This document shows, in pieces, positions 1-39,774 of a stretch of DNA of 62,539 nucleotides. A model generated the notes under the pieces. It worked only from the letters and a program-made list of their open reading frames with translations. It did no database searches and was not told where the DNA came from. Position 1 is the first letter of the stretch. Each line of letters starts with the position of its first letter. Made by a program: the position numbers and the translations under genes. This stretch comes from a virus (taxonomy: Duplodnaviria; Heunggongvirae; Uroviricota; Caudoviricetes), in IMG/VR virus record IMGVR_UViG_2634166512_000005, one strand, 5' to 3'.

Positions 1-678
1 TTATTCCTGTGCCCAGCCAACCCTGTATGCCAGGATCTCATCCGCACTGCTCAGCGATTCCAGGTCCTTCTTCATGGTGCGCTGGCGAATGTGGATTTCC
101 ATCCCTTTAGTGAACATCGCCTGCTCTGCCGCTTCACTCAGCGCAATAAGCTCTTCTGCTGTCACCGGCACATCATTGTTTTCCGCATCCGTCCAGAAAA
201 ACGCCTCCGGCAGTTTCCCCGCTTTCGCTGCCGCCACCGATGGCTCAAGACGCGTCTGCGTTGACTTCCCGTAGTCCCATTTCCGGCCATTGTGCTCAAA
301 CGTGTAGTTCGCCGCCTCCATCGCATTACGCCAGGTGTTTATTTCATCGCCCTTCATCCCGCGGGCTTTCTCCGCGGTCAGCAGGTCCGTGATTTTCTCC
401 CCGTCAAAGCCCCAGCGCCCCGAGATATCAGCTTTGCGGTTTTCTTCCGTATCCGCCACCTCCGCAACACTCTGATTCGCTGGCCACAGCGCCTGTACAT
501 CCCTGCTGATATCAGTGATAACCCCTGCTCTGTTATAAACCACTTTCAGCGTATCCGGCGAAAACAAGGGCTGACACTCATACCAGTCCTGACCATCCTC
601 TGATTTCAGGTACATCGCCCCCGGAACATCCGGATTTTCCGGCGTATACCAGATGAAGTTTTTTATATTTACCATCAT
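1..678 (-). CDS. tfa: tail fiber assembly protein
   Basis: ORF 1..738; EDGQDWYE...PDTLKVVY...ADISGRWGFDG pattern as in P2 gpG/TfaE-type chaperones; start placed at ATG 678. Confidence 0.7.
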   Translation of the reverse strand: MMVNIKNFIWYTPENPDVPGAMYLKSEDGQDWYECQPLFSPDTLKVVYNRAGVITDISRDVQALWPANQSVAEVADTEENRKADISGRWGFDGEKITDLLTAEKARGMKGDEINTWRNAMEAANYTFEHNGRKWDYGKSTQTRLEPSVAAAKAGKLPEAFFWTDAENNDVPVTAEELIALSEAAEQAMFTKGMEIHIRQRTMKKDLESLSSADEILAYRVGWAQE

Positions 679-686
679 TACCCCGC

Positions 687-899
687 TTATCGTTGCCCCG
701 CTTCTCTCCAGATCGGCATATTCTCCGGCCCCACACACCTCTCCATTCCTGCCGGGGCTGCACTGGCAGAAAAGACCTTATACACGGCACTCTCCACAAC
801 AACACTGTCTTCCGGCCAGCTTCCGGCAGCCTCATAAACCGAACGAAGCGAGGCCGGATAAAACGCATTATTTGATGGCGAAAAAAAATACTTTTCCAT
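687..899 (-). CDS. small hypothetical protein between stf and tfa (possible tfa N-terminal remnant)
   Basis: 70-aa ORF starting 10 nt after stf stop with RBS AGGAGGGAGA; no recognisable family. Confidence 0.3.
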   Translation of the reverse strand: MEKYFFSPSNNAFYPASLRSVYEAAGSWPEDSVVVESAVYKVFSASAAPAGMERCVGPENMPIWREAGQR

Positions 900-908
900 T
901 CTCCCTCC

Positions 909-2621
909 TCAGTAGCCAATAGCCTCCCAGTAAAACAGCCCGTATGTGTCCTTACTGACCGTCAGTATTACCGACTTCAGCAACGGTTCTGAAAGGGCAT
1001 ACCCCGTGAAATTTCCCGGTGAACCTACCGGTGATACAATGACATTCAGCGCCGCTGACGGAAAAGCTATCGGGAAATAGATGGTATGTGTGTCTCCTTC
1101 ACTGGTTGGCCGGACAACTTGTTTCTGCCCCCATTGCCGTATTCTTCCTGTTGCCTCATCCCGCTCCCATCCGTTCACATCCAGTTTCGCTGTTGAGGGG
1201 CGTCTGATGGAAGTGTAGTTAAACCGCCACTCATAGCTCTTTATACTGCCGCTGACCACGCAGGTGCAGTCCGTGCCATAAAACATATCCCAGGGCCGGT
1301 CATCACCTGCGCTGATCCGGACTATCGCATTCTCCCATGACCCCATCACTTCAATGGCGCATCCTCTCAGGGTGATTTTTTTCTTACCCAAATCAGTATC
1401 CACATCCGTGATCACACGGTTACTGTTGAGTAACCGCGTCGTGGTCATTACCCAGTAAGGGCCCTCAAAAGCACCCTGTGATTTCAGCCAGTTGATGAAC
1501 TCTTCTGTCGTCCACTCCCCTTCACCTGTTTTGAGATCACGCCCGTAAGCTCTTGCCACCCCAAGCTTACGAATAAACGCCTCCTTGTCGGCAATATCAT
1601 CCAGGCTGGCAGACTTCCCTGCCGGACCCGCTGGCCCCTGCGCCCCTCTCTCGCCTTTATCGCCCTTTGGCCCCGTCGCCCCCTGCGGCCCCACGGGCCC
1701 CGTTGCACCTCGCTCACCTTGCGGCCCCCGCTCACCGGCAGGGCCTGCCGGGCCGGGGTCACCTTTATCCCCTTTTACCCCCTGCGGTCCTCTGGGGCCG
1801 GTAGCGCCCTGTGGACCTCGTTCTCCGGGCTCGCCTTTTTTCCCCTCAGGACCGGCCCCCCCCGTCGGCCCCTGAGGCCCCGGCATCCCCTGCTCGCCCT
1901 TATCTCCACGGGGCCCCGCTTCTCCACGCGGCCCTGCGGGTCCCTGTGGACCAGCAGGCCCCCGGGGTCCTGCCGGGCCTCCCGGGTCTCCTTTATCACC
2001 TTTCGGTCCGACAGGCCCCTGCTCACCCCGTTCCCCCCGTGGCCCCTGCCCGCCGGTTTCACCACGCGGCCCGGCAACACCGGCCTCGCCCTTTGCGCCC
2101 TGAAGCCCCTGCGGCCCCCTCTCACCACGCTCACCCTTTGGCCCCCGCTCGCCGGTATCGCCTTTTGGCCCGGGAATACCCTGTGGCCCCGTGTCTCCCT
2201 TATCCCCCTTCGGTCCCCGCGCATTCTCTGCCCGTTTCTTCGCTTCCTCTGCACTCGCCGCTGACGCTTCCGCACGTTTCAGGATTTCCGCGGCCACCGC
2301 TTCCAGCTCTGCAAGGGCTTTCGGGTAATACTGTGCGTCCTCCAGGTCCATCAGAAATTTATTCAGCGTTCCCGGTGCAGACTCCGCCTTCACCAGAATG
2401 TCACCCACATATGACGGCGCGTACCCTTCCGTGTTCAGCGTCACCCGGTACAACCCCGGCTCAACATCCATACTGTAACTGCCGGTTTCCCCCGGCTGAC
2501 CATACGCCACCGTGGTGACAATCACCGTCTCCGTTGTGCGGCGCGCTTTCAGCTCTATCGTGCATCCCGGTACCGGCTTACCGGCCCCGTCCTTCAGCAC
2601 ACCCGATATTCTGACTGCCAT
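909..2621 (-). CDS. stf: side tail fiber protein with collagen-like Gly-X-Y repeat region
   Basis: 570-aa ORF; long uninterrupted G-X-Y run ([16 protein letters not shown]...); RBS GGAGG. Confidence 0.8.
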
Positions 2622-3104: not shown

Positions 3105-6100
3105 TCAGCGGATACTGATCCCCGCGCTGTTTTTCTTCACCACTATCGCCTGAAGGTTACTGATTCGTGAACTGCCCCAACTGTTATTCTGACGCCGTGA
3201 GCTCACGGTAAAACTCAGGGTGATATGACCACCGCCAGCTGGCATATCGATGATCCCGCTGAAAACTCCCGGCTCTTCCACTGACCTGCCTGAATAAATC
3301 CGGCGTCCGTTCTGATCAACATGCAGGAAGCACTCTGTCCAGATGTCATTACTGGTGCGGGATTCCTGTTTTGACCCGACATAGATTATCGGCGGGATTA
3401 TAATCTGCCGGTCAAAGCTGTGATCGTCATACACCGTCAGCGTCCGTGTACCGTTCGCAAGGTAACTACCATCCACCGGAAAAGCCACCCCTGCACATTT
3501 CACCAGATCACCAATAATGTTCTCCGCTTTCAGCGTGCCATTTATCGTACAGTTCTCCGCTATCACGACATTATTGAGCGTGCCCGAGTTCGCACTGATA
3601 TGTCCGCTGATGTCAGCATTGCGGGCCGTCAGCCTGCCCTCCGGCGTCAGGGAGAACGTCGGGGGATTGCCGGACGAGGTGATACTCACTGCAAACAGTC
3701 GCTTCAGGAACACGTCGTTCATGAACAGCTGATTCCCCTGTGCCACAAACAGCGGCGTGGTGTTGCCGTTCTCCGGGGTAATCATTGCGATACGGTCCGC
3801 CTGCAGCAGAATATTGCTCAGCGTCTGGCCATCAGCATCCTCAATCCCCGCACCAATACCGGCAACATACGGAATGCCGTTTTTCGTTTTCTGCACCTTC
3901 AGCATGTACAGCGCTGCCAGCTCATCATTCGTGTCTGACTGGACCTGCTGTATCTGCTGTATGGTCGCGCTCTGGTCTTCCAGCTTTTTATCCGTGGTCG
4001 AGGTGATTTCACTCCCTTTGTCATCCACGTACTGGCGGACCTGCGCTATCTGCCTGGCGTTTTCCTCCGTGCTCTGGCTGACTGTCTGTGTGATTTCACT
4101 GCTCACCCGGTCCACCTGCTGACTCACCTGCGCGATGGCCAGCGTCTGGTCCTCATTCTTTTTCGCAACCAGCTGCGTGAGGCTGTTTTCCGCCTCCCCG
4201 ATTTTTCGGGTCACTTCCGCAACATCCGTCTCCAGCCGCTGGCGGATGTCTTCTTCCAGTTGCGTGACCTCAGTACGCAGGGCTGACGCATCAATACGCT
4301 CTTTCAGTGCCTTCCCCAGCAGCGCCTCATCTATCAGCCCACGGAAAATTTCCAGATACCCTTCACCATCATTGCTGGCCTGCCCGCTGGCCTCCACAAA
4401 CGCAGATTTCCCCACCAGGTTGACGCTGCGCACATAAAACCAGAAAATCCTTCCCCGGCTTAATGTGCGGACCGGAGACGCTCCACTGGCTGCCGGTACC
4501 CAGATAACGGGCAGAGGTTTCCACCTGTGCCGTGTCCGTGATGCGTTTTTCTGAGAACCAGAATTCATGCTGTACCGTCGGGTCATACACCGTAAGATGC
4601 GGGACCACCGTTATCTGATAATACCCCGGCGTCAGTTCAATGCTGGCCGGTGCTGCCGGTGCGTTAATCCGGAACGTGGTGGTGGCAGGTTCGCCCTGCT
4701 GGCCGTAGCTGTTTATCGCCCTGACCGTCAGGGTGTATTCCCCCAGAGGCAGGCCACTGAAACGGTGCTCCGTGTCGGCAGTGATGGCGCTGGTCACCAG
4801 GCGGCTGTTTTCACCGTTTCCGCTGGTCAGGCGCAGACTGAAGCGCACGCCCTTCACCCACCCGCGGCGTGTCCCATTTCGCCAGCGCCAGATACTGGCC
4901 GTCTGAGGCACTCACCTCCACCGTGAGGTGCTGCACTGCCGGCGGGATGACGCTGTTCAGTGAACCGGACAGCGGCTCAAAGCGGGCCCCGTTATCCACG
5001 ATGGCTTCTTTTTCCGGTACGTGCTGCACTGCCGTGATGGCAAAGGTGCCGTCCGTGTTTTCCCGGATGGAAACACAGCGGAACAGGCGACGACGCAGTG
5101 ACGGCAGGGAGAGTCCCCACACACCGTATGTCGCCACGCCATCAGGCAGAATGCTGACCTGTATCCGGTCAGGGGCGGGGTGTGCAGTGATGTCCACGCG
5201 CACCGGCTTACCGCTGCCGTTAATCAGGTTCACCGTCGATGTCCCTGTTTCCGGCAGTGTCACCTCCACGGTCCAGCGTCAGTGTGCGGCTGGCGGCATC
5301 GATGGACAGGATACGTCCGCCGGTCAGGGTCCCGGCATAGTCGTTATCACAGATTTCAATGATGTCACCGGGCGTGTGCCGCAGCCCCTGTGACCCGAGC
5401 GTGAAATCCACCGTCTGCGTTTCCAGCAGTTCGGTCTTTATCACCCACAGTCCGGCACGGTGAGCCTGACCGCGGCTGGTACAGCCGAACGCATCCATCT
5501 TCAGCAGGTTGCGCCCCGTAGCGCAGGATGGCGTCCGGGTCTTCCACCAGTTCCGTGACGTCTGCCAGCCGTTCTGCGGGTCAGTGTAATTCACCTCCAC
5601 CGCCGTGTGCCGTCCTTCAGGGCACTGAAGCTGTAGCGGAACCCCACCGCCGTTATCATCCACCACCACATCGCTGTTCGTGTACGGCCACACCACATCC
5701 GACGGGCGGTCCTGAACGAACGTCAGCGTCTGGCCGTTCCATACCGGCATACAGCGCATCGCCGAGCAGAAATCCCCCCAGGACATCCCAGACCTTTACG
5801 CTGCTGTTGACAGGTACGCATTGAAAGTCATCCGCGGCTCTGTTCCCCCGAAACCATCCGGGACCGTCTGGTTCGCAGTACTGGCCCGATGGCATACAGC
5901 GCCCACTTGTCCACATCCGCCGCCCCCCAGGCGTTTTCCCATCCCGTAGCGCGGGTGGGTCAGCATGTCCCACCAGGCACCAGGCCGGTTATTGCTGTAT
6001 GCGGTTTCAGACTCCCGTCCCAGATACCGCTGTAGGTGCGTTTTTCCGGGTCATAGTTTGACGGCACCTGAATGATGCGGCCGCGGATATGGTAGTTCAC

Positions 6101-9868: not shown

Positions 9869-12262
9869 TAAAGAAGAAATTGCACTGTATTACGAAGCCA
9901 AAAATGACAAAGTCAGAAAACGCCTTGGGATTAAAGGCGGTTTTTACTGGCGCACAGCAAAAAAATTATCGGTTGCAATATCACGGGGTGTTGTCGCAAT
10001 GGACGATGCTGGATTTGACGAAGAGGATTTCAAAAAACCTGTTCGCGTGAATTTGCCCATTGTTAATGACCTGCCGCCTGAAGGTGTGTTTGATACCGAA
10101 TTCTGCAACCGCTATGAAAAAGGTGGAGAAGATGGCATCACAATGATATTTATAGCGCCTTCCCCCTCAGTTCAGGACAAACCAGCCAGCACTGACAATA
10201 CCAACGTCAATGGCGAAGACATGGCTGAGATTGAGGATAATATGCTCCTGCCGATTTCCGGTCAGGAACTGCCCATTCGCTGGCTTGCGCAACATGGCAG
10301 CGAAAAACCGGTAACGCACGTTTCACGGGAAGAACTTCAGGCATTACATATCGCACGAGCTGAAGAACTGCCTGCTGTTACTGCCCTGGCTATTTCCCAC
10401 AACACAAAGCTGCTCGACCCGCTGGAGATTCGCGACCTTCAAAAACTGGTACGCGACACAGACAAAGTTTTCCCTAATCCCGTTAATTCCAGTCTGGGGT
10501 TAATGACTGCTTTTTTCGGAAGGCATACCTGGACGCTGACTATACCGATCGAGGTCTGCTGACAAAAGAGTGGATGAAAGGAAATCGTGTTTACGCATCA
10601 GCCGCACGCGCATCCGGCGCTAATGCTGGCGGAGGAATTCTTACCGATCGCGGTGAAGGTTTTGTCCACGATGATGCGTCAGTGGAACGTGACGTTGCCG
10701 CTGGCGTTCTGGCCCGTTCAATGGACATCGATATTTACAATCCACATCCGGCACACGCCAAACGCATTGAAGAAATCGTTTCAGAGAATAAGCCGCCCTT
10801 TTCTGTTTTTCGTGACAAATTCATCGCCATGCCTGGTCACCTGGATTATTCCCGCGCGATAGTGGTTGCATCCGTGAAAGAAGCACCAATTGGTATCGAG
10901 GCTACTCCCCACCGTGTTACCGAATATCTGAACAAAGTACTGACCGAAACCGACCATGCCAACCCTGATCCAGAAATCGTGGATATTGCCTGCGGTCGCT
11001 CCTCTGCTCCAATGCCGCAGCGTGTAACAAAAGAAGGAAAACAGGATGATGAAGAAAAACCGCAGCCAACTGGCGCAATGGCAGATGAACAGGCAACGAC
11101 TGAAGCAGTGGAACCGGATACAACTGAACATAATCAGGACACGCAGTCGATGGATGCTCAGCCACAGATAAATTCTGTTGATGCGAAATATCAGAAACTG
11201 CGTGCAGAACTCCATGAAGCCAGGAAAAACATTCCCCCCAAAAATCCTGTCGATGCAGATAAATTACTGGCTGCTTCTCACGGAGAATTTGTTGAAGGGA
11301 TTAGCGATCCGAATGATCCGAAATGGGTGAAGGGGATTGAAACCCGCGATTCTGTGAACCAGAACCAGCACGAATCGGAACAAAACGAGCCGGAAACGAA
11401 ACAGCCTGAACCAGAAGAGCAACAAGAACCGGAAAAAGTCTGCACCGCCTGCGGTCAGATCGGCGACGGCAACTGTCCTGACTGTGGCGCGGTAATGGGC
11501 GACGCAACATACCAGGAAACATTCAACGAAGAAAGCCAGGATGAAGCCCGGGAGAAAAGATCCAGAGGAAATGGAAAGTGCCGTATACCCGAACAAGGAG
11601 TGCTCCGAAGGCGATCAACATGCCAATGGCAATAATGAAACAGGCGAGACAGCAAATCCCTTAATTAAGGTGAACGGTCATCGCGAAAGCACATCCACCA
11701 GCAGGTTGTGGCACCATCTGATGATTGACCTTGAAACAATGGGCAAAAATCCTGATGCGCCAATAAACGCTCTGGCCGGTAAGTTTTTTGATCCGGCAAC
11801 CGGAGAGATGGGGCCAGAATTCAGCAAAACTATCGATCTGGAAACCGCGGGCGGAGTCATCGATCGGGACACCATTAAGTGGTGGCTGAAACAGTCACGG
11901 GAAGCACAATCAGCCATTCTGACCGATGAAATCCCGTTGGATGACGCACTGTTGCAATTACGGGAATTTATCGACGAAAACTCCGGTGAATTTTTTGTTC
12001 AGGTCTGGGAAATGGAGCCAACTTCGACAACGTGATTTTACGCCGTTCATATGAACGGCAGGAGATCCCCTGCCCGTGGCGTTACACCAATGATCGTGAT
12101 GTAAGAACGATTGTTGCCCTGGGGCTGGTGATGGATTTCGATGCTCGAAGTGTCATCACATTTGAGGGTGAACGCCATAATGCCCTGCACGATGCGCGTT
12201 ACCAGGCAAAATACGTTTCAGCTATCTGGCAAAAACTGTTCCCGAATCAGGCTGATTTTTAA
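9858..12262 (+). pseudogene. large exonuclease-like early protein (DEDDh C-terminal domain), split into four ORFs
   Basis: ORFs 9858..10562, 10574..11635, 11541..12035, 12032..12262 are co-linear with intact 58831..61233. Confidence 0.65.
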
Positions 12263-12328
12263 TGTTCAACCCATATCGCCGCCCACCAGCTATAGTGGCG
12301 GCGGTCATGCTGTAAGGCACGTGACCAC

Positions 12329-30030: not shown

Positions 30031-31088
30031 TTTCCGCCTCCTGCATCCCGCCCACGTTTTGCAGCCAGGGTCCAGGCTGATGAATGAGCTTCTCCGGGTT
30101 TATCACCGGTCATACTGTTGCAGTGCCACAGCGAGCCCCCCCATGTCACCGTATCGCCGGGGTGGTAGGTTTCACCGGCTCTGAACACACCGCGGTAGAG
30201 CATCACCGGCAGGGAAAATGTTTTTTCCGTACGCTGACCGCTGCTCTGCCGGATCACCACAGAGAACAACCGTTCACCCGTCATACTGACGTCAATATCC
30301 GCCACCCCGTCAACCAGGCATTCCCATCCCCGCATCCCGTGCGTTTTTTCATACGCCCGCCAGAGTCCGCCCAGGTGTGTGGCATACGTGCCCCGGGGAA
30401 AGGATTTTTGATCGTCAATGGCGGGGAGTATTTCCAGTGCCGTGGCATCACGCCCGTCCTGCGGAGCCGGCAGGGCACTCACCGCATCCAGAACCGCCTT
30501 CTGCAGAACATCCGGATCGTAGTCACGACCATCACGCGGAACAGGAATATGGCTTACCGCCTCCTTCACCATCTGTTCAAGCATCGGATGCACATCATCC
30601 GGGGTGATACTTTTACCGTCTGCCGGCTGCGGAATATTTGCGACCGCATCATTCACCGCCTTCTGCAGAACATCGGGATCATAGTCACGACCATCTCGCG
30701 GAACAGGGATATGGCTTACCGCCTCCTTCACCATCTGTTCAAGCATCGGACGCACATCATCCGGGGTGAGACTTTTACCGTCCGCTGGCTGTGGAATATT
30801 TGCGACCGCGTCATTCACCGCCTTCTGCAGTACTTCCGGATCGTAGTCACGACCGTCACGCGGAACAGGGATATGGCTTACCGCCTCCTTCACCATCTGC
30901 TCAAGCATCGGACGCACATCATCGCCCGTCACGCACTTCTGTAATACCACAGACAGGGAAGCCAGTTTTTCTTCAAACGTTTGTGCCTGCGCGGCTATTT
31001 TCCCCTCAAATGTGCGCTGTAAATCCGCCAGCACTGCGGAAAATTCTTCACCCAGCGCACGGATAATGGACAGTTCACGTTCATTCAT
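30027..31088 (-). CDS. head-region protein with three tandem ~55-aa repeats
   Basis: 353 aa; repeat DDVRPMLEQMVKEAVSHIPVPRDGRDYDP.VLQKAVNDAVANIPQPADGKS.TP three times. Confidence 0.6.
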   Translation of the reverse strand: MNERELSIIRALGEEFSAVLADLQRTFEGKIAAQAQTFEEKLASLSVVLQKCVTGDDVRPMLEQMVKEAVSHIPVPRDGRDYDPEVLQKAVNDAVANIPQPADGKSLTPDDVRPMLEQMVKEAVSHIPVPRDGRDYDPDVLQKAVNDAVANIPQPADGKSITPDDVHPMLEQMVKEAVSHIPVPRDGRDYDPDVLQKAVLDAVSALPAPQDGRDATALEILPAIDDQKSFPRGTYATHLGGLWRAYEKTHGMRGWECLVDGVADIDVSMTGERLFSVVIRQSSGQRTEKTFSLPVMLYRGVFRAGETYHPGDTVTWGGSLWHCNSMTGDKPGEAHSSAWTLAAKRGRDAGGGK

Positions 31089-37172: not shown

Positions 37173-37538
37173 TTACAGTCCGATGATGTCGTCCGCTCTG
37201 CCACTACCTCCGGACACCTCCGGCAGCGTCGGGTCCGGCATACCACCCGCCGCTTCACGAGCAGACTTTTGTCGATGGCATTCGGTACAGAGCGTCCAGA
37301 GATTCGTCTCCTCATTACCACCACCGAACTGAAGTGCAATTCGGTGATCGAGTTCACTGTCACAGAGGTCAACCACACGACCACAGAGACAGCACTGCCC
37401 GGCGTCCCTGAGCCAGATATGACGCTTGAGGGAAACACGTGCACTGCCACTGACACGACGCTGTTCACCCTTCAGAATATTCACCCGTCGGGTATTCAGT
37501 GTTTTGATTCTGCTCTGGAGTGTACGAAGCTGAGCCAT
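37173..37538 (-). CDS. HNH endonuclease, packaging-associated
   Basis: CCLCGRVVD...LDHRIALQFGGGNEETNLWTLCTECH motif. Confidence 0.8.
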   Translation of the reverse strand: MAQLRTLQSRIKTLNTRRVNILKGEQRRVSGSARVSLKRHIWLRDAGQCCLCGRVVDLCDSELDHRIALQFGGGNEETNLWTLCTECHRQKSAREAAGGMPDPTLPEVSGGSGRADDIIGL

Positions 37539-37579: not shown

Positions 37580-37780
37580 ATGTCATCGAAAAACCGGACC
37601 CGCAGAACCACAACCCGCAATATCCGTTTCCCCAATCACATGATTGAACAGATCAACATCGCCCTTGAGCATAAAGGGTCCGGTAACTTTTCAGCGTGGG
37701 TTATTGAAGCCTGCAGGAGAAGGCTGGCAACAGATGCAACGCATCTGCGTCCGGCCAGCATGACAAATAACGAGAAATGA
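37580..37780 (+). CDS. ribbon-helix-helix (CopG/Arc-like) small DNA-binding protein
   Basis: MSSKNRTRRTTTRNIRFPNHMIEQINIALE...; RBS AAGGA; opposite strand to neighbours. Confidence 0.5.
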   Translation: MSSKNRTRRTTTRNIRFPNHMIEQINIALEHKGSGNFSAWVIEACRRRLATDATHLRPASMTNNEK

Positions 37781-37911
37781 ACGTTCGGTTACAGGAGCAG
37801 GTACCCACTGTCCTCCAACAATATTTCATCTTCATACCCGGCGGAACAAGACTTACCCAGCCGGGATGTACAGAATAACAACAGAGTGATAATTAATTTC
37901 TGATGAAATAA

Positions 37912-38244
37912 TCAGGGTGCAGAAGGACTAAAGATAAACGTTTTCTTCACGCCTTTACGCGGCCTGTCCTTCTCAAATCGCCATTTTGCCATCGCCTTTA
38001 CAACCTGCTCATCAAACAGATGGTGCGGCTCTGAACGGATAAACTCAATTCGGGTGACAGTACCATCAGCACCAATATCAAACTTCACATCAACCCGTCC
38101 CTTTATATAATTTGCCGCTGCATAGGCCGGATATTGTGGTAATGCCTTAACCAACTGTCGGGGCATATCTGTTTTATGTTGCGTACAGCCCATAACCAGA
38201 GAAGACAACAAAATAATTAACGGAAGATTTCTTTTCATTTTCAT
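37912..38244 (-). CDS. lipoprotein with TonB C-terminal-like domain
   Basis: signal peptide plus lipobox VMGC; C-terminal GRVDVKFDIGADGTVTRIEFIRSEP...KAMAKWRF resembles TonB_C; start could be 38238. Confidence 0.55.
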   Translation of the reverse strand: MKMKRNLPLIILLSSLVMGCTQHKTDMPRQLVKALPQYPAYAAANYIKGRVDVKFDIGADGTVTRIEFIRSEPHHLFDEQVVKAMAKWRFEKDRPRKGVKKTFIFSPSAP

Positions 38245-38574
38245 TCCCGGCACAGATAAGAATAAGTCTTATTCTAACAATGCCACCCTGTCAGTCATCA
38301 ATCCTCTGCTTAATGGCAACGACAATTATCCGACTTAAATCACAAATCAGACACATGACATAACAGAGCTTGCGAGGTAACACATCGTCCGGTTTCTTCC
38401 ACCATCGCACCGGACCAGCGACCATGAGGGGACAACGCCGCGCTCCGTTAACGCGGTAAACCCCGGTGTGTATCGTTTTTGATTATCCCCGCACACTCTC
38501 GCAGAGGAGTCTCCCTGTCGGGCTGCGGTCTCTGTTAATGCAGGAATACGGCGACGATACGGCGCATAGTTATG

Positions 38575-39120
38575 TCAGGCTGAAATGCCTTTATCAAATC
38601 CGGGTAACGCAATCTGCCCCTGCTGCTCCAGCCTGTCCAGCCTTGCCAGCAACTGAGGCTTCTTCACCCTGCCCCAGCGATTGAGCAAGCGACCTGACAT
38701 ACTGGCGACATCTTTCTCTTTCATGTATTCCAGCATGACTGCATTTCTCTCAGCTTCCAGGTGTGTTTTTCCCTGCATGATAAGTTCTGCCATCCAGTTG
38801 AAAGCCTGGATGTACGTAACCTTTATTTGCATCGCAGTCTTACCAGTAAACCCCATAACGACCAGCATGTAACCGTCTTTCGTCATGTTAAACATTGGCT
38901 GGACATCACCATTTTTATCAATAAAATCAGTAGGCTCAAAATTGAGCCGGGCAAAATCATCAGGACATTCAGAAATGGTTTGCCTGATCTTTCTTAATAC
39001 GTTCTTATGACTCTTACCAAAAAATTCCGCCACTTTAATACTCGTGGTCAGGACAGAGCCTCCCACTACCATAACCATGTCACGAAAATCAATGCCGTTA
39101 ACAACGGTAGAATATTTCAT
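38575..39120 (-). CDS. Rha-family anti-repressor
   Basis: N-terminal ...KNGDVQPMFNMTKDGYMLVVMGFTGKTAMQIKVTYIQAFNWM; start at ATG 39120. Confidence 0.7.
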   Translation of the reverse strand: MKYSTVVNGIDFRDMVMVVGGSVLTTSIKVAEFFGKSHKNVLRKIRQTISECPDDFARLNFEPTDFIDKNGDVQPMFNMTKDGYMLVVMGFTGKTAMQIKVTYIQAFNWMAELIMQGKTHLEAERNAVMLEYMKEKDVASMSGRLLNRWGRVKKPQLLARLDRLEQQGQIALPGFDKGISA

Positions 39121-39300
39121 AGCGTGTACCTGCTCTTTGAAATGAACCTTTGCCGCACAGGAAACCAGCCCACCGAGGCTCGCCAGCACTAACTGGTATC
39201 CTCAAAGGCTCATTCCAAAGGGGCAGGTTCGGTGGTTATCATGCGCTGCGGTGCGCGGTGAAATTCAGATATGAAAAAGCCAGCGATTAAGCAGGCTCTG

Positions 39301-39774
39301 TTAATTCAGGCACTGAGTGCGGATATATTCCTGAAGCGTTCTCAATGCGGCCTGATCGCTGATGATTCCGTCTCTGATACCGAGAACGTTTCGTCCAGCA
39401 ACTGGAGAGAGTTCGACGGAGGCATCATTGCCCACGCCGGAGGTGGTGGGGGCTTCACGCACGGTACCGGAGCTGGTGGCGTTGATCCGCAGGCGCTTAC
39501 GACCAGCGGCAACATCAGCACGCAGAGTTTCATTTTCAGCTCTCGCATCGGCTAATTCCCTCGAGTATTTTGCATCGAGCGCAGCAACATCGCGCTGGCG
39601 CACCTGCATATCAGTAATGGTTGCGTTTGCCTGCTCCAGCTCTCTGGCTTTTTTATCGCGCTGCGCTTTGTAGGTGATAGCGTTATCGCGGTAATGATTC
39701 AGCCCCAGACTAAGCGCACCACAGACCACCAGCAGAATAACGGTAAACGCGGAAAGCATTCGGTTTATGCTCAC
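39301..39774 (-). CDS. Rz: i-spanin Rz
   Basis: [45 protein letters not shown], lambda Rz-like. Confidence 0.9.
39342..39533 (-). CDS. Rz1: o-spanin Rz1 lipoprotein, embedded in Rz
   Basis: [17 protein letters not shown] then Pro-rich; +1 frame inside Rz. Confidence 0.8.

Follow-up and report, generated by a model that had tools for sequence, protein, structure and literature searches.

We analysed a stretch of 62,539 nucleotides from a member of the Caudoviricetes (IMG/VR virus record IMGVR_UViG_2634166512_000005; hereafter, the window), and describe a gene at positions 37912..38238 on its minus strand (stop codon 37912-37914) that encodes a 108-amino-acid lipoprotein with a domain of the TonB C-terminal (TonB_C) family. 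The window carries sequences that we take to be stx2A (45246-46205) and stx2B (44965-45234), both on the minus strand and downstream of three tRNA genes (Arg, Arg and Met; 46296-46547); hence, it is a long-tailed lambdoid Stx2-converting prophage of E. coli. Along the minus strand, which is the late-gene strand, the order is Rz/Rz1, a gene for a Rha-family regulator, the lipoprotein gene, an HNH endonuclease gene and the genes for the small and large terminase subunits, with ylcI on the opposite strand between the lipoprotein and HNH genes. A previous sequence-only reading of this DNA described a lipoprotein gene and a convergent gene for a ribbon-helix-helix (RHH) protein between an anti-repressor gene and the packaging module; both genes lie where that reading placed them, and its anti-repressor is the Rha-family protein.

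The longest open reading frame (ORF) for the lipoprotein spans 37912-38253 on the minus strand, with a GTG start at 38253, and includes an in-frame ATG at 38244 (MKMKR...), the position at which the sequence-only reading had the feature end. Translation most probably begins at the ATG at 38238, for a protein of 108 amino acids that opens with MKRNLPLIILLSSLVMGC (MKRNLPL...), since RefSeq gives 108 amino acids for the 'TonB family protein' of near-identical prophages, and since the ATG at 38244 is replaced by ATA in 21 related loci. Positions 38185..38238 (minus strand; Cys codon at 38185-38187) read as a lipoprotein signal peptide, MKRNLPLIILLSSLVMG, followed by Cys18; they consist of a charged MKR, a hydrophobic NLPLIILLSSL and an L-V-M-G-C18 lipobox, in which Met at position -2 is unusual, yet allowed. 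Cys18 is invariant across 13 family members, down to 34% identity, and the lipoboxes of the 13 homologues are canonical (SVGC, AVGC, LMGC, ISAC and LLGC, among others). Under the Lol sorting rule, lipoproteins with Asp at position +2 stay in the inner membrane. This position is Thr in the window lipoprotein, Ser or Ala in its relatives, and non-Asp across the family, which predicts that the mature lipoprotein goes to the outer membrane. Thus, the claim of a signal peptide with a VMGC lipobox stands, and the description of the protein as 'secreted' is better put as anchored in the outer membrane and periplasmic.

Residues 26-104 of the lipoprotein (37927..38163, minus strand) constitute a TonB C-terminal domain, as indicated by profile matching, alignment, AlphaFold2 (AF2) modelling and Foldseek comparison. 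The lipoprotein matches the Pfam TonB_C profile PF03544 at 55.9 bits (cutoff 24.6; E=5.8e-15) and TIGR01352 at 56.4 bits (cutoff 27.1; E=2.8e-15), and NCBIfam equivalog models for enterobacterial TonB align to it through their C-terminal ~80 residues. A phmmer search of PDB sequences returned E. coli and Salmonella TonB C-terminal-domain chains at E~1e-16, with residues 26-104 aligned without gaps to positions 4-82 of the 1u07 chain; we take 1u07 to begin at TonB residue 150, so that the aligned span would be TonB 153-231. Identity is about 37-42% to TonB C-terminal domains, and ~39% to that of E. coli TonB, over ~79 residues. The AF2 model, built on 13 family sequences, has a mean pLDDT of 86.6, rising above 95 over the domain, and contains helices at residues 38-42 and 76-83 and strands at residues 47-55, 61-70 and 94-103. 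This three-stranded sheet with two helices superposes on solved TonB C-terminal domains: the top PDB matches of the predicted model in Foldseek were 1u07, 2gsk_B and 2grx_C (target-normalised TM 0.88-0.92, rmsd 1.0-1.4 Å, identity 37-39%), of which 2gsk_B and 2grx_C are TonB domains crystallised on BtuB and FhuA, respectively. The sequence-only reading had proposed a resemblance to the TonB C-terminus, with a TonB_C profile search and a structure prediction as ways of checking it; both came out positive, and the resemblance extends far beyond chance at the levels of profile, sequence and predicted structure.

Features that characterise the TonB domain are retained in the lipoprotein. The predicted fold is that of the E. 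coli and Salmonella TonB C-terminal domains (1u07, 2gsk chain B, 2grx chain C and 8rd6), and the segment that aligns with TonB beta3 forms a beta strand in the model (residues 94-103). The YP motif is conserved, as are the residues aligned with F180, G186, F202, W213 and F230 in TonB numbering; Q160, R166 and Y215 have as their counterparts Leu, Tyr and Phe, respectively. Unlike TonB, however, the lipoprotein has no N-terminal transmembrane anchor, no proline-rich spacer and no equivalent of the last beta4 segment. Its N-terminus is instead a lipoprotein signal peptide with predicted cleavage at Cys18, from which a tether of only ~7 residues (TQHKTDM) leads to the domain, so that a protein with this lipid anchor would not be energised by ExbB/ExbD. 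Consistent with this, its scores against the NCBIfam TonB equivalog models (49-73 bits) are below their cutoffs (265-448). As judged from these missing segments, namely the membrane anchor and the proline-rich spacer, the lipoprotein is not a TonB. We conclude that the gene encodes a lipoprotein precursor of the signal-peptidase-II type, which after maturation is little more than a TonB C-terminal domain.

Comparison with other phages indicates that the gene is an accessory one. Pairwise blastn with the Stx2a phage L002 detected homology through the HNH gene and most of ylcI to position 37734, and again from position 38388; between these breakpoints, L002 has 246 bp of other sequence without a lipoprotein gene where the window has 653 bp. 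Inside the insertion/deletion cassette thus defined (37735..38387) are the variable 3' end of ylcI and the lipoprotein gene with the sequence upstream of it. GC content is 41-46% across the lipoprotein gene, versus 55-59% in the flanking HNH and terminase DNA. Upstream of the cassette on the minus strand are the Rha-family gene (38575-39189) and an intact Rz gene (39301-39774; Pfam Phage_lysis, E=1e-38) in which Rz1, encoding a proline-rich lipoprotein, is embedded (39342-39548); downstream is the HNH endonuclease gene (37173-37538, minus strand). The lipoprotein gene is best read as a phage 'moron', a small, self-contained accessory cassette between the lysis genes and cos/terminase.

We examined how widely the gene is distributed. 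The whole 1.1-kb stretch carrying it is present, with coverage of at least 80%, in 411 of 5426 complete E. coli genomes (~8%), is 99% identical in many E. coli isolates, and is likewise found in phages JLK-2012 and Lys8385Vzw, as well as in Stx1a phages. A word-indexed protein search returned relatives from E. coli only, in groups with at least 89% and ~71% identity. An exhaustive search of representative sequences returned 4933 TonB_C proteins at E<=1e-3, and the best full-length matches include proteins of ~110 amino acids with 33-49% identity, mostly with lipoboxes. Close relatives are encoded by 176 IMG/VR stretches, and a subgroup with 45-62% identity is common on viral contigs too; the query for our scan of the genome collection was the 45%-identity subgroup. 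Existing records name these proteins 'TonB family protein', 'partial tonB-like membrane protein' or 'TonB fragment'. Pairwise dN/dS against diverged homologues is 0.1-0.3, with dS up to 1.5, indicating that the lipoprotein is maintained by purifying selection. Several members of the 70%-identity subgroup, to which the phage 21 protein belongs (P0010, P0012, P0013, P0018, P0019 and P0021), have differing, frameshifted C-termini past residues ~88-95, which may reflect decay in cryptic prophages or assembly errors.

The family occurs in phages of Escherichia and Klebsiella, including the classical phage 21, and in all seven phage contexts that we inspected, the gene lies between the lysis cassette and terminase/cos, despite different terminases and lysis cassettes. 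Thus, the family member in L004 is beside a gene for a Nu1-type small terminase; that in L094 directly follows a GH19 endolysin gene and the gene for a DUF2514 protein, inside which lies a lipoprotein ORF (the latter two read by us as a spanin pair); that in L102 is followed by an Ivy gene and then a gene for a DUF1441 protein, which we read as a small terminase; and that in L103 comes after holin and endolysin genes, with an insertion sequence (IS) element in between, and upstream of a gene for a Terminase_2 small subunit. The Ivy gene of L102 (5449-5871), directly after the family gene, encodes a secreted homologue of the inhibitor of vertebrate lysozyme and is a host-benefit periplasmic gene. 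In phage 21, the family member is gene 73, a 'TonB C-terminal domain protein' that is 71% identical to the window lipoprotein and lies between bor and cosQ (L160 3501-3827, corresponding to OL657228.1 41842-42168); phage 21 is hence a ready laboratory system for the function of the family. Two further copies are in Raoultella (R. planticola, L006 6001-6318; R. ornithinolytica, L008 6001-6327) and are 47-58% identical to the 45% subgroup. Their contexts are apparently chromosomal, with EAL/GAF, GNAT, lacZ/lacI and mlrA-like genes as neighbours and no phage genes among the neighbouring ORFs scanned, indicating that small TonB_C lipoproteins are not exclusively phage-borne.

Within the cassette, ~30 nt 5' of the start codon, a consensus scan identified a candidate sigma-70 promoter with an extended -10 element (38271..38298, minus strand; ATGACT, 16-nt spacer, TGtTAGAAT). 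The -10 block TGTyAGAATAAGAC is retained in the 70%-identity locus L004, and promoter-like sites, equally weak, are also found upstream of the gene in L094 and L104. A perfect 8-1-8 palindrome, AGAATAAGtCTTATTCT (38259..38275), overlaps the -10 element and the expected transcription start, and could be an operator. It is single-copy in the window, with 0.11 copies expected by chance, and is retained in 86 of 91 close loci, though these are near-identical sequences; it is not retained in L004 or L005. We considered and rejected a Fur box at this position, since the best match to the consensus is 13/19, a score that 17 sites in the window equal or exceed, so that the resemblance is at chance level. 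We also noted a non-coding region of ~200 nt directly downstream of the Rha gene (38388-38595) that contains short stem-forming repeats, recognised by eye, and has no Rfam match. Its conservation is 88-90%, both among phages that carry the lipoprotein cassette and those that do not, and also at loci where the lipoprotein has just 70% identity; across L004 and L005 it is greater than that of the coding sequence. A role as a cassette-specific regulatory RNA was rejected, because the region is also found in the Stx2a phage L002, which has no lipoprotein gene; hence, it is part of the phage backbone.

The convergent neighbour (37580..37780, plus strand) is ylcI/ynfO, which encodes a 66-amino-acid DUF3950 protein (Pfam, E=4.2e-20) that also matches the NCBIfam YlcI/YnfO family. 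A low-confidence single-sequence AF2 model of YlcI (pLDDT 60) has an extended N-terminal segment and then two helices, which makes an RHH identity plausible but does not prove it; YlcI had no match to RHH Pfam families or to PDB sequences, and BLASTP against the Arc repressor gave no alignment. The sequence-only reading had suggested that this gene could regulate the lipoprotein gene. Our results do not support this: ylcI adjoins the HNH gene in L002, which is without the lipoprotein cassette, and no DUF3950-like gene was seen beside the family members in L004, L094, L102, L103 and phage 21 in a non-exhaustive survey that drew on lists of ORFs, the record for phage 21 and Pfam scans of some of the neighbouring ORFs. 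Only the last ~45 nt of ylcI fall inside the cassette, and the window has no second copy of the palindrome, near ylcI or elsewhere. Since ylcI is present without the TonB_C gene and was not seen beside the other family members checked, we conclude that it is a phage backbone gene and not a dedicated regulator of the lipoprotein.

What the lipoprotein does can be approached from its architecture. Our favoured reading, which we hold tentatively and stop short of calling probable, is that it may be a dominant-negative decoy that occupies TonB boxes. The ~7-residue tether would hold the domain at the periplasmic face of the outer membrane, the site at which TonB boxes emerge, both those of TonB-dependent transporters and those of group B colicins on their way in, and the domain would bind these boxes by beta-strand addition, like authentic TonB. 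With no inner-membrane anchor, and hence no link to ExbB/ExbD, it could not transmit force, and would act as a dominant-negative competitor. Uptake by TonB-dependent routes would fall, giving the lysogen tolerance to colicins (B, D, Ia/Ib and M), microcins and phages (T1 and phi80) that depend on TonB, at the price of some loss of siderophore and vitamin B12 uptake. Expression would come from the gene's own promoter in the lysogen, supplemented by the late transcript, given that the gene is on the late-gene strand.

Published work on TonB bears on this reading. In the FhuA-TonB structure solved by crystallography, the TonB box is paired with TonB beta3 in a parallel arrangement, and the function of the TonB box hinges on secondary structure more than on side chains (PMC11658791). 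The retained fold of the predicted model, including the beta3-equivalent strand, the YP motif and the core aromatic residues, makes competition for TonB boxes plausible. Moreover, iron import through E. coli TonB-dependent transporters is reported to be inhibited when the periplasmic TonB domain is overexpressed (Howard et al. 2001, J Bacteriol 183:5885, cited in PMC9841981), which makes a decoy mechanism plausible, and a TonB-box pentapeptide is reported to lower colicin killing and phi80 infection (Tuckman and Osburne 1992, cited in PMC9841981). Like the plasmid-expressed fragments of Howard et al., as these are described in the citing paper, the lipoprotein consists of a periplasmic TonB C-terminal domain with no coupling to the inner-membrane motor; the fragments were soluble, engineered and made in excess, whereas the lipoprotein is the product of a natural phage gene, has a predicted outer-membrane anchor and is ~39% identical to TonB.

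Phage lipoproteins that interfere with TonB-dependent transporters provide a second comparison. Llp of phage T5 is located at the inner leaflet of the outer membrane, where it binds FhuA, and Cor of phages phi80, N15 and HK022 is likewise a superinfection-exclusion lipoprotein; both work on the TonB-dependent transporter FhuA from its periplasmic side, inactivating it and so keeping out phages and colicins. The window lipoprotein, as far as its sequence predicts, resembles Llp and Cor in being a small phage-encoded outer-membrane lipoprotein on the periplasmic side. It does not have the Llp/Cor fold: the Foldseek search of the PDB returned TonB domains and not the FhuA:Llp entry, and a fold search of BFVD returned no viral structural match at E<=1e-3. 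Llp and Cor each inhibit a specific receptor allosterically, whereas a decoy made of a TonB domain would work generically on every TonB-box protein. A PADLOC search found no defence-system match for the lipoprotein, YlcI or Rha.

Several observations weigh against a decoy function. Promoter-like matches in this region are no commoner than in shuffled sequence by the consensus scan, and we found no intrinsic terminator downstream of the lipoprotein gene. Q160 and R166, which are changed to Leu and Tyr, are residues that we take to contact the transporter, although Q160L is a suppressor allele and not a null. A blockade of TonB would starve the lysogen of iron, so that expression must be low or conditional, and TonB-dependent transporters may greatly outnumber any plausible decoy. 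The Raoultella copies suggest that the domain may have a housekeeping role that was borrowed by phage. We found no functional study of this lipoprotein in the literature searched, an absence that is not proof. Finally, over its C-terminal 300 amino acids, the phage's tail-tip J protein shares 54% identity with lambda J and 96% with Stx phage 1720a-02, and nothing in this comparison points to a TonB-dependent receptor. We also considered a role in self-exclusion, which is not supported, since J is lambda-like and there is no sign that this phage uses a TonB-dependent receptor.

An alternative that does not involve TonB boxes is that the lipoprotein is a conversion factor that remodels the envelope in the manner of Bor, by binding peptidoglycan or another envelope protein and so altering outer-membrane stability, vesiculation or serum resistance. 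The genomic slot of the gene contains bor in lambda and phage 21 and the Ivy gene in L102, family members are found in non-phage chromosomal contexts in Raoultella, and the TonB_C fold is common to TolA domain III and to gliding-motility proteins with other roles. Like lambda Bor and other morons between Rz and cos, the lipoprotein gene is a low-GC accessory gene, present in some phages and absent from others, and phage 21 has both genes. However, the lipoprotein has no sequence or fold relation to Bor, and no similarity to Bor/Iss; in phage 21, bor is on the opposite strand, whereas the TonB_C gene is on the late strand. In addition, it is genuine enterobacterial TonB C-terminal domains, and not divergent TonB_C variants, that come closest to it by sequence and by structure. 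We consider an envelope-remodelling function unlikely.

A TonB domain at the outer membrane might also act on TonB itself. The lipoprotein could sequester host TonB there, by pairing with the TonB C-terminal domain or with the periplasmic domain of ExbD, and would produce the same phenotype as a TonB-box decoy. Aromatic residues are kept at the positions that match F180, F202, W213, Y215 (here Phe) and F230, and these are residues that we take, from work of the Postle laboratory, to be dimer contacts between TonB C-terminal domains in vivo; they are also core-packing residues, however, whose conservation is expected in any TonB_C fold. TonB is limiting, and transporters compete for it (PMC9841981); hence, titrating TonB would take far fewer decoy molecules than titrating transporters. 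With an identity to TonB of only ~39%, we regard sequestration as quite unlikely.

We think it very improbable that the lipoprotein is a lysis accessory or spanin component, made late and acting in outer-membrane disruption or its timing. The idea has some basis: the lipoprotein is matched over its full length by phrog_1267 ('Rz-like spanin', category lysis; E=2.6e-42), the gene directly follows spanin or endolysin genes on the late strand in L094 and L102, and the protein is a predicted outer-membrane lipoprotein, as o-spanins are. However, an intact Rz/Rz1 pair is already encoded in the window, the spanin pairs of L094 and phage 21 are complete as well, and related phages such as L002 manage without the gene. 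Moreover, the lipoprotein has no C-terminal transmembrane segment, as a unimolecular spanin would, and its folded 90-residue domain, without a periplasmic Cys, is unlike the short, proline-rich o-spanins. We judge the PHROGs label of phrog_1267 to be wrong; it looks like an annotation by position, and will propagate into phage annotations. That the gene is a functionless fragment of captured tonB drifting in prophages, as the older name 'partial tonB-like membrane protein' and the frameshifted C-termini in the 70%-identity subgroup might suggest, can be all but dismissed given the dN/dS of 0.1-0.3 over dS of up to 1.5, a lipoprotein signal peptide gained and kept with its invariant Cys, and an ORF that has stayed full-length across many phage lineages and in 411 of the complete E. 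coli genomes.

A parallel to the proposed TonB-box decoy is found in a prophage of E. coli OkiPb01697 (L003), the closest relative of the window. A 142-amino-acid gene product of this prophage (30533-30961, minus strand; 'TolA' in RefSeq) has an LTTGC lipobox followed by TolA domain III (PF06519, E=5.9e-23). It belongs to a family of TolA-domain lipoproteins (phrog_5772) that includes the 'TolA protein' of phage mEp460, and 894 of 5426 complete E. coli genomes (~16%) carry the gene. In L003, it is downstream of Q and the tRNA genes, where the window has stx2, and the gene is absent from the window. TolA domain III is described as the binding target of group A colicins and of the filamentous-phage protein g3p. 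The TolA-domain lipoprotein thus has the same design as the TonB_C lipoprotein, a lipobox joined to the C-terminal domain of an energy transducer, and differs from it in domain and in genomic slot. The occurrence of this anchor-plus-domain design in two instances strengthens the decoy reading, but does not prove it.

The two families together raise a broader idea, which we consider somewhat doubtful: that temperate phages of Enterobacteriaceae have repeatedly made TonB and TolA C-terminal domains into outer-membrane lipoprotein decoys, as a generic defence by 'import-hub mimicry'. We found no paper on a phage TonB or TolA decoy in the literature searched, although absence there is not proof. 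If the idea were correct, lysogens would be tolerant to whole classes of agents, microcins among them (group B colicins via TonB; group A colicins and filamentous phages via TolA), and Stx-converting prophages would carry an unrecognised competitive-fitness trait. If the TonB_C lipoprotein alone is a decoy, it would be a new form of prophage-mediated host protection, in which the shared TonB-box handle is plugged, rather than one receptor as by Cor or Llp; it would join the phage outer-membrane lipoproteins that disable TonB-dependent import, and would do so by imitating a host domain. Such a decoy would, in addition, be nature's counterpart to the efforts to target the interaction between the TonB box and TonB with antibiotics. 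Since the gene is found in both Stx1- and Stx2-converting phages, such a trait could affect the ecology of Shiga-toxin-producing E. coli, with possible effects on colicin competition in the cattle or human gut, on iron uptake, and on how phage or colicin therapy turns out.

We made two further observations, one in the window and one in its closest relative. Same-length ORFs recur within the window (1-920 and 14403-15321; 3105-4586 and 17503 onward; 10574-13568 and 58831-62539), and identical 19-mers are found at 664/15066 and 10730/59701, which suggests large internal repeats, such as duplicated tail-fibre regions, IS copies or two adjacent prophages. In L003, an ompC-type porin gene (4436-5599) lies among the tail genes, between the gene for minor tail protein L and that for a 'phage tail protein', and is a further envelope-modifying accessory gene.

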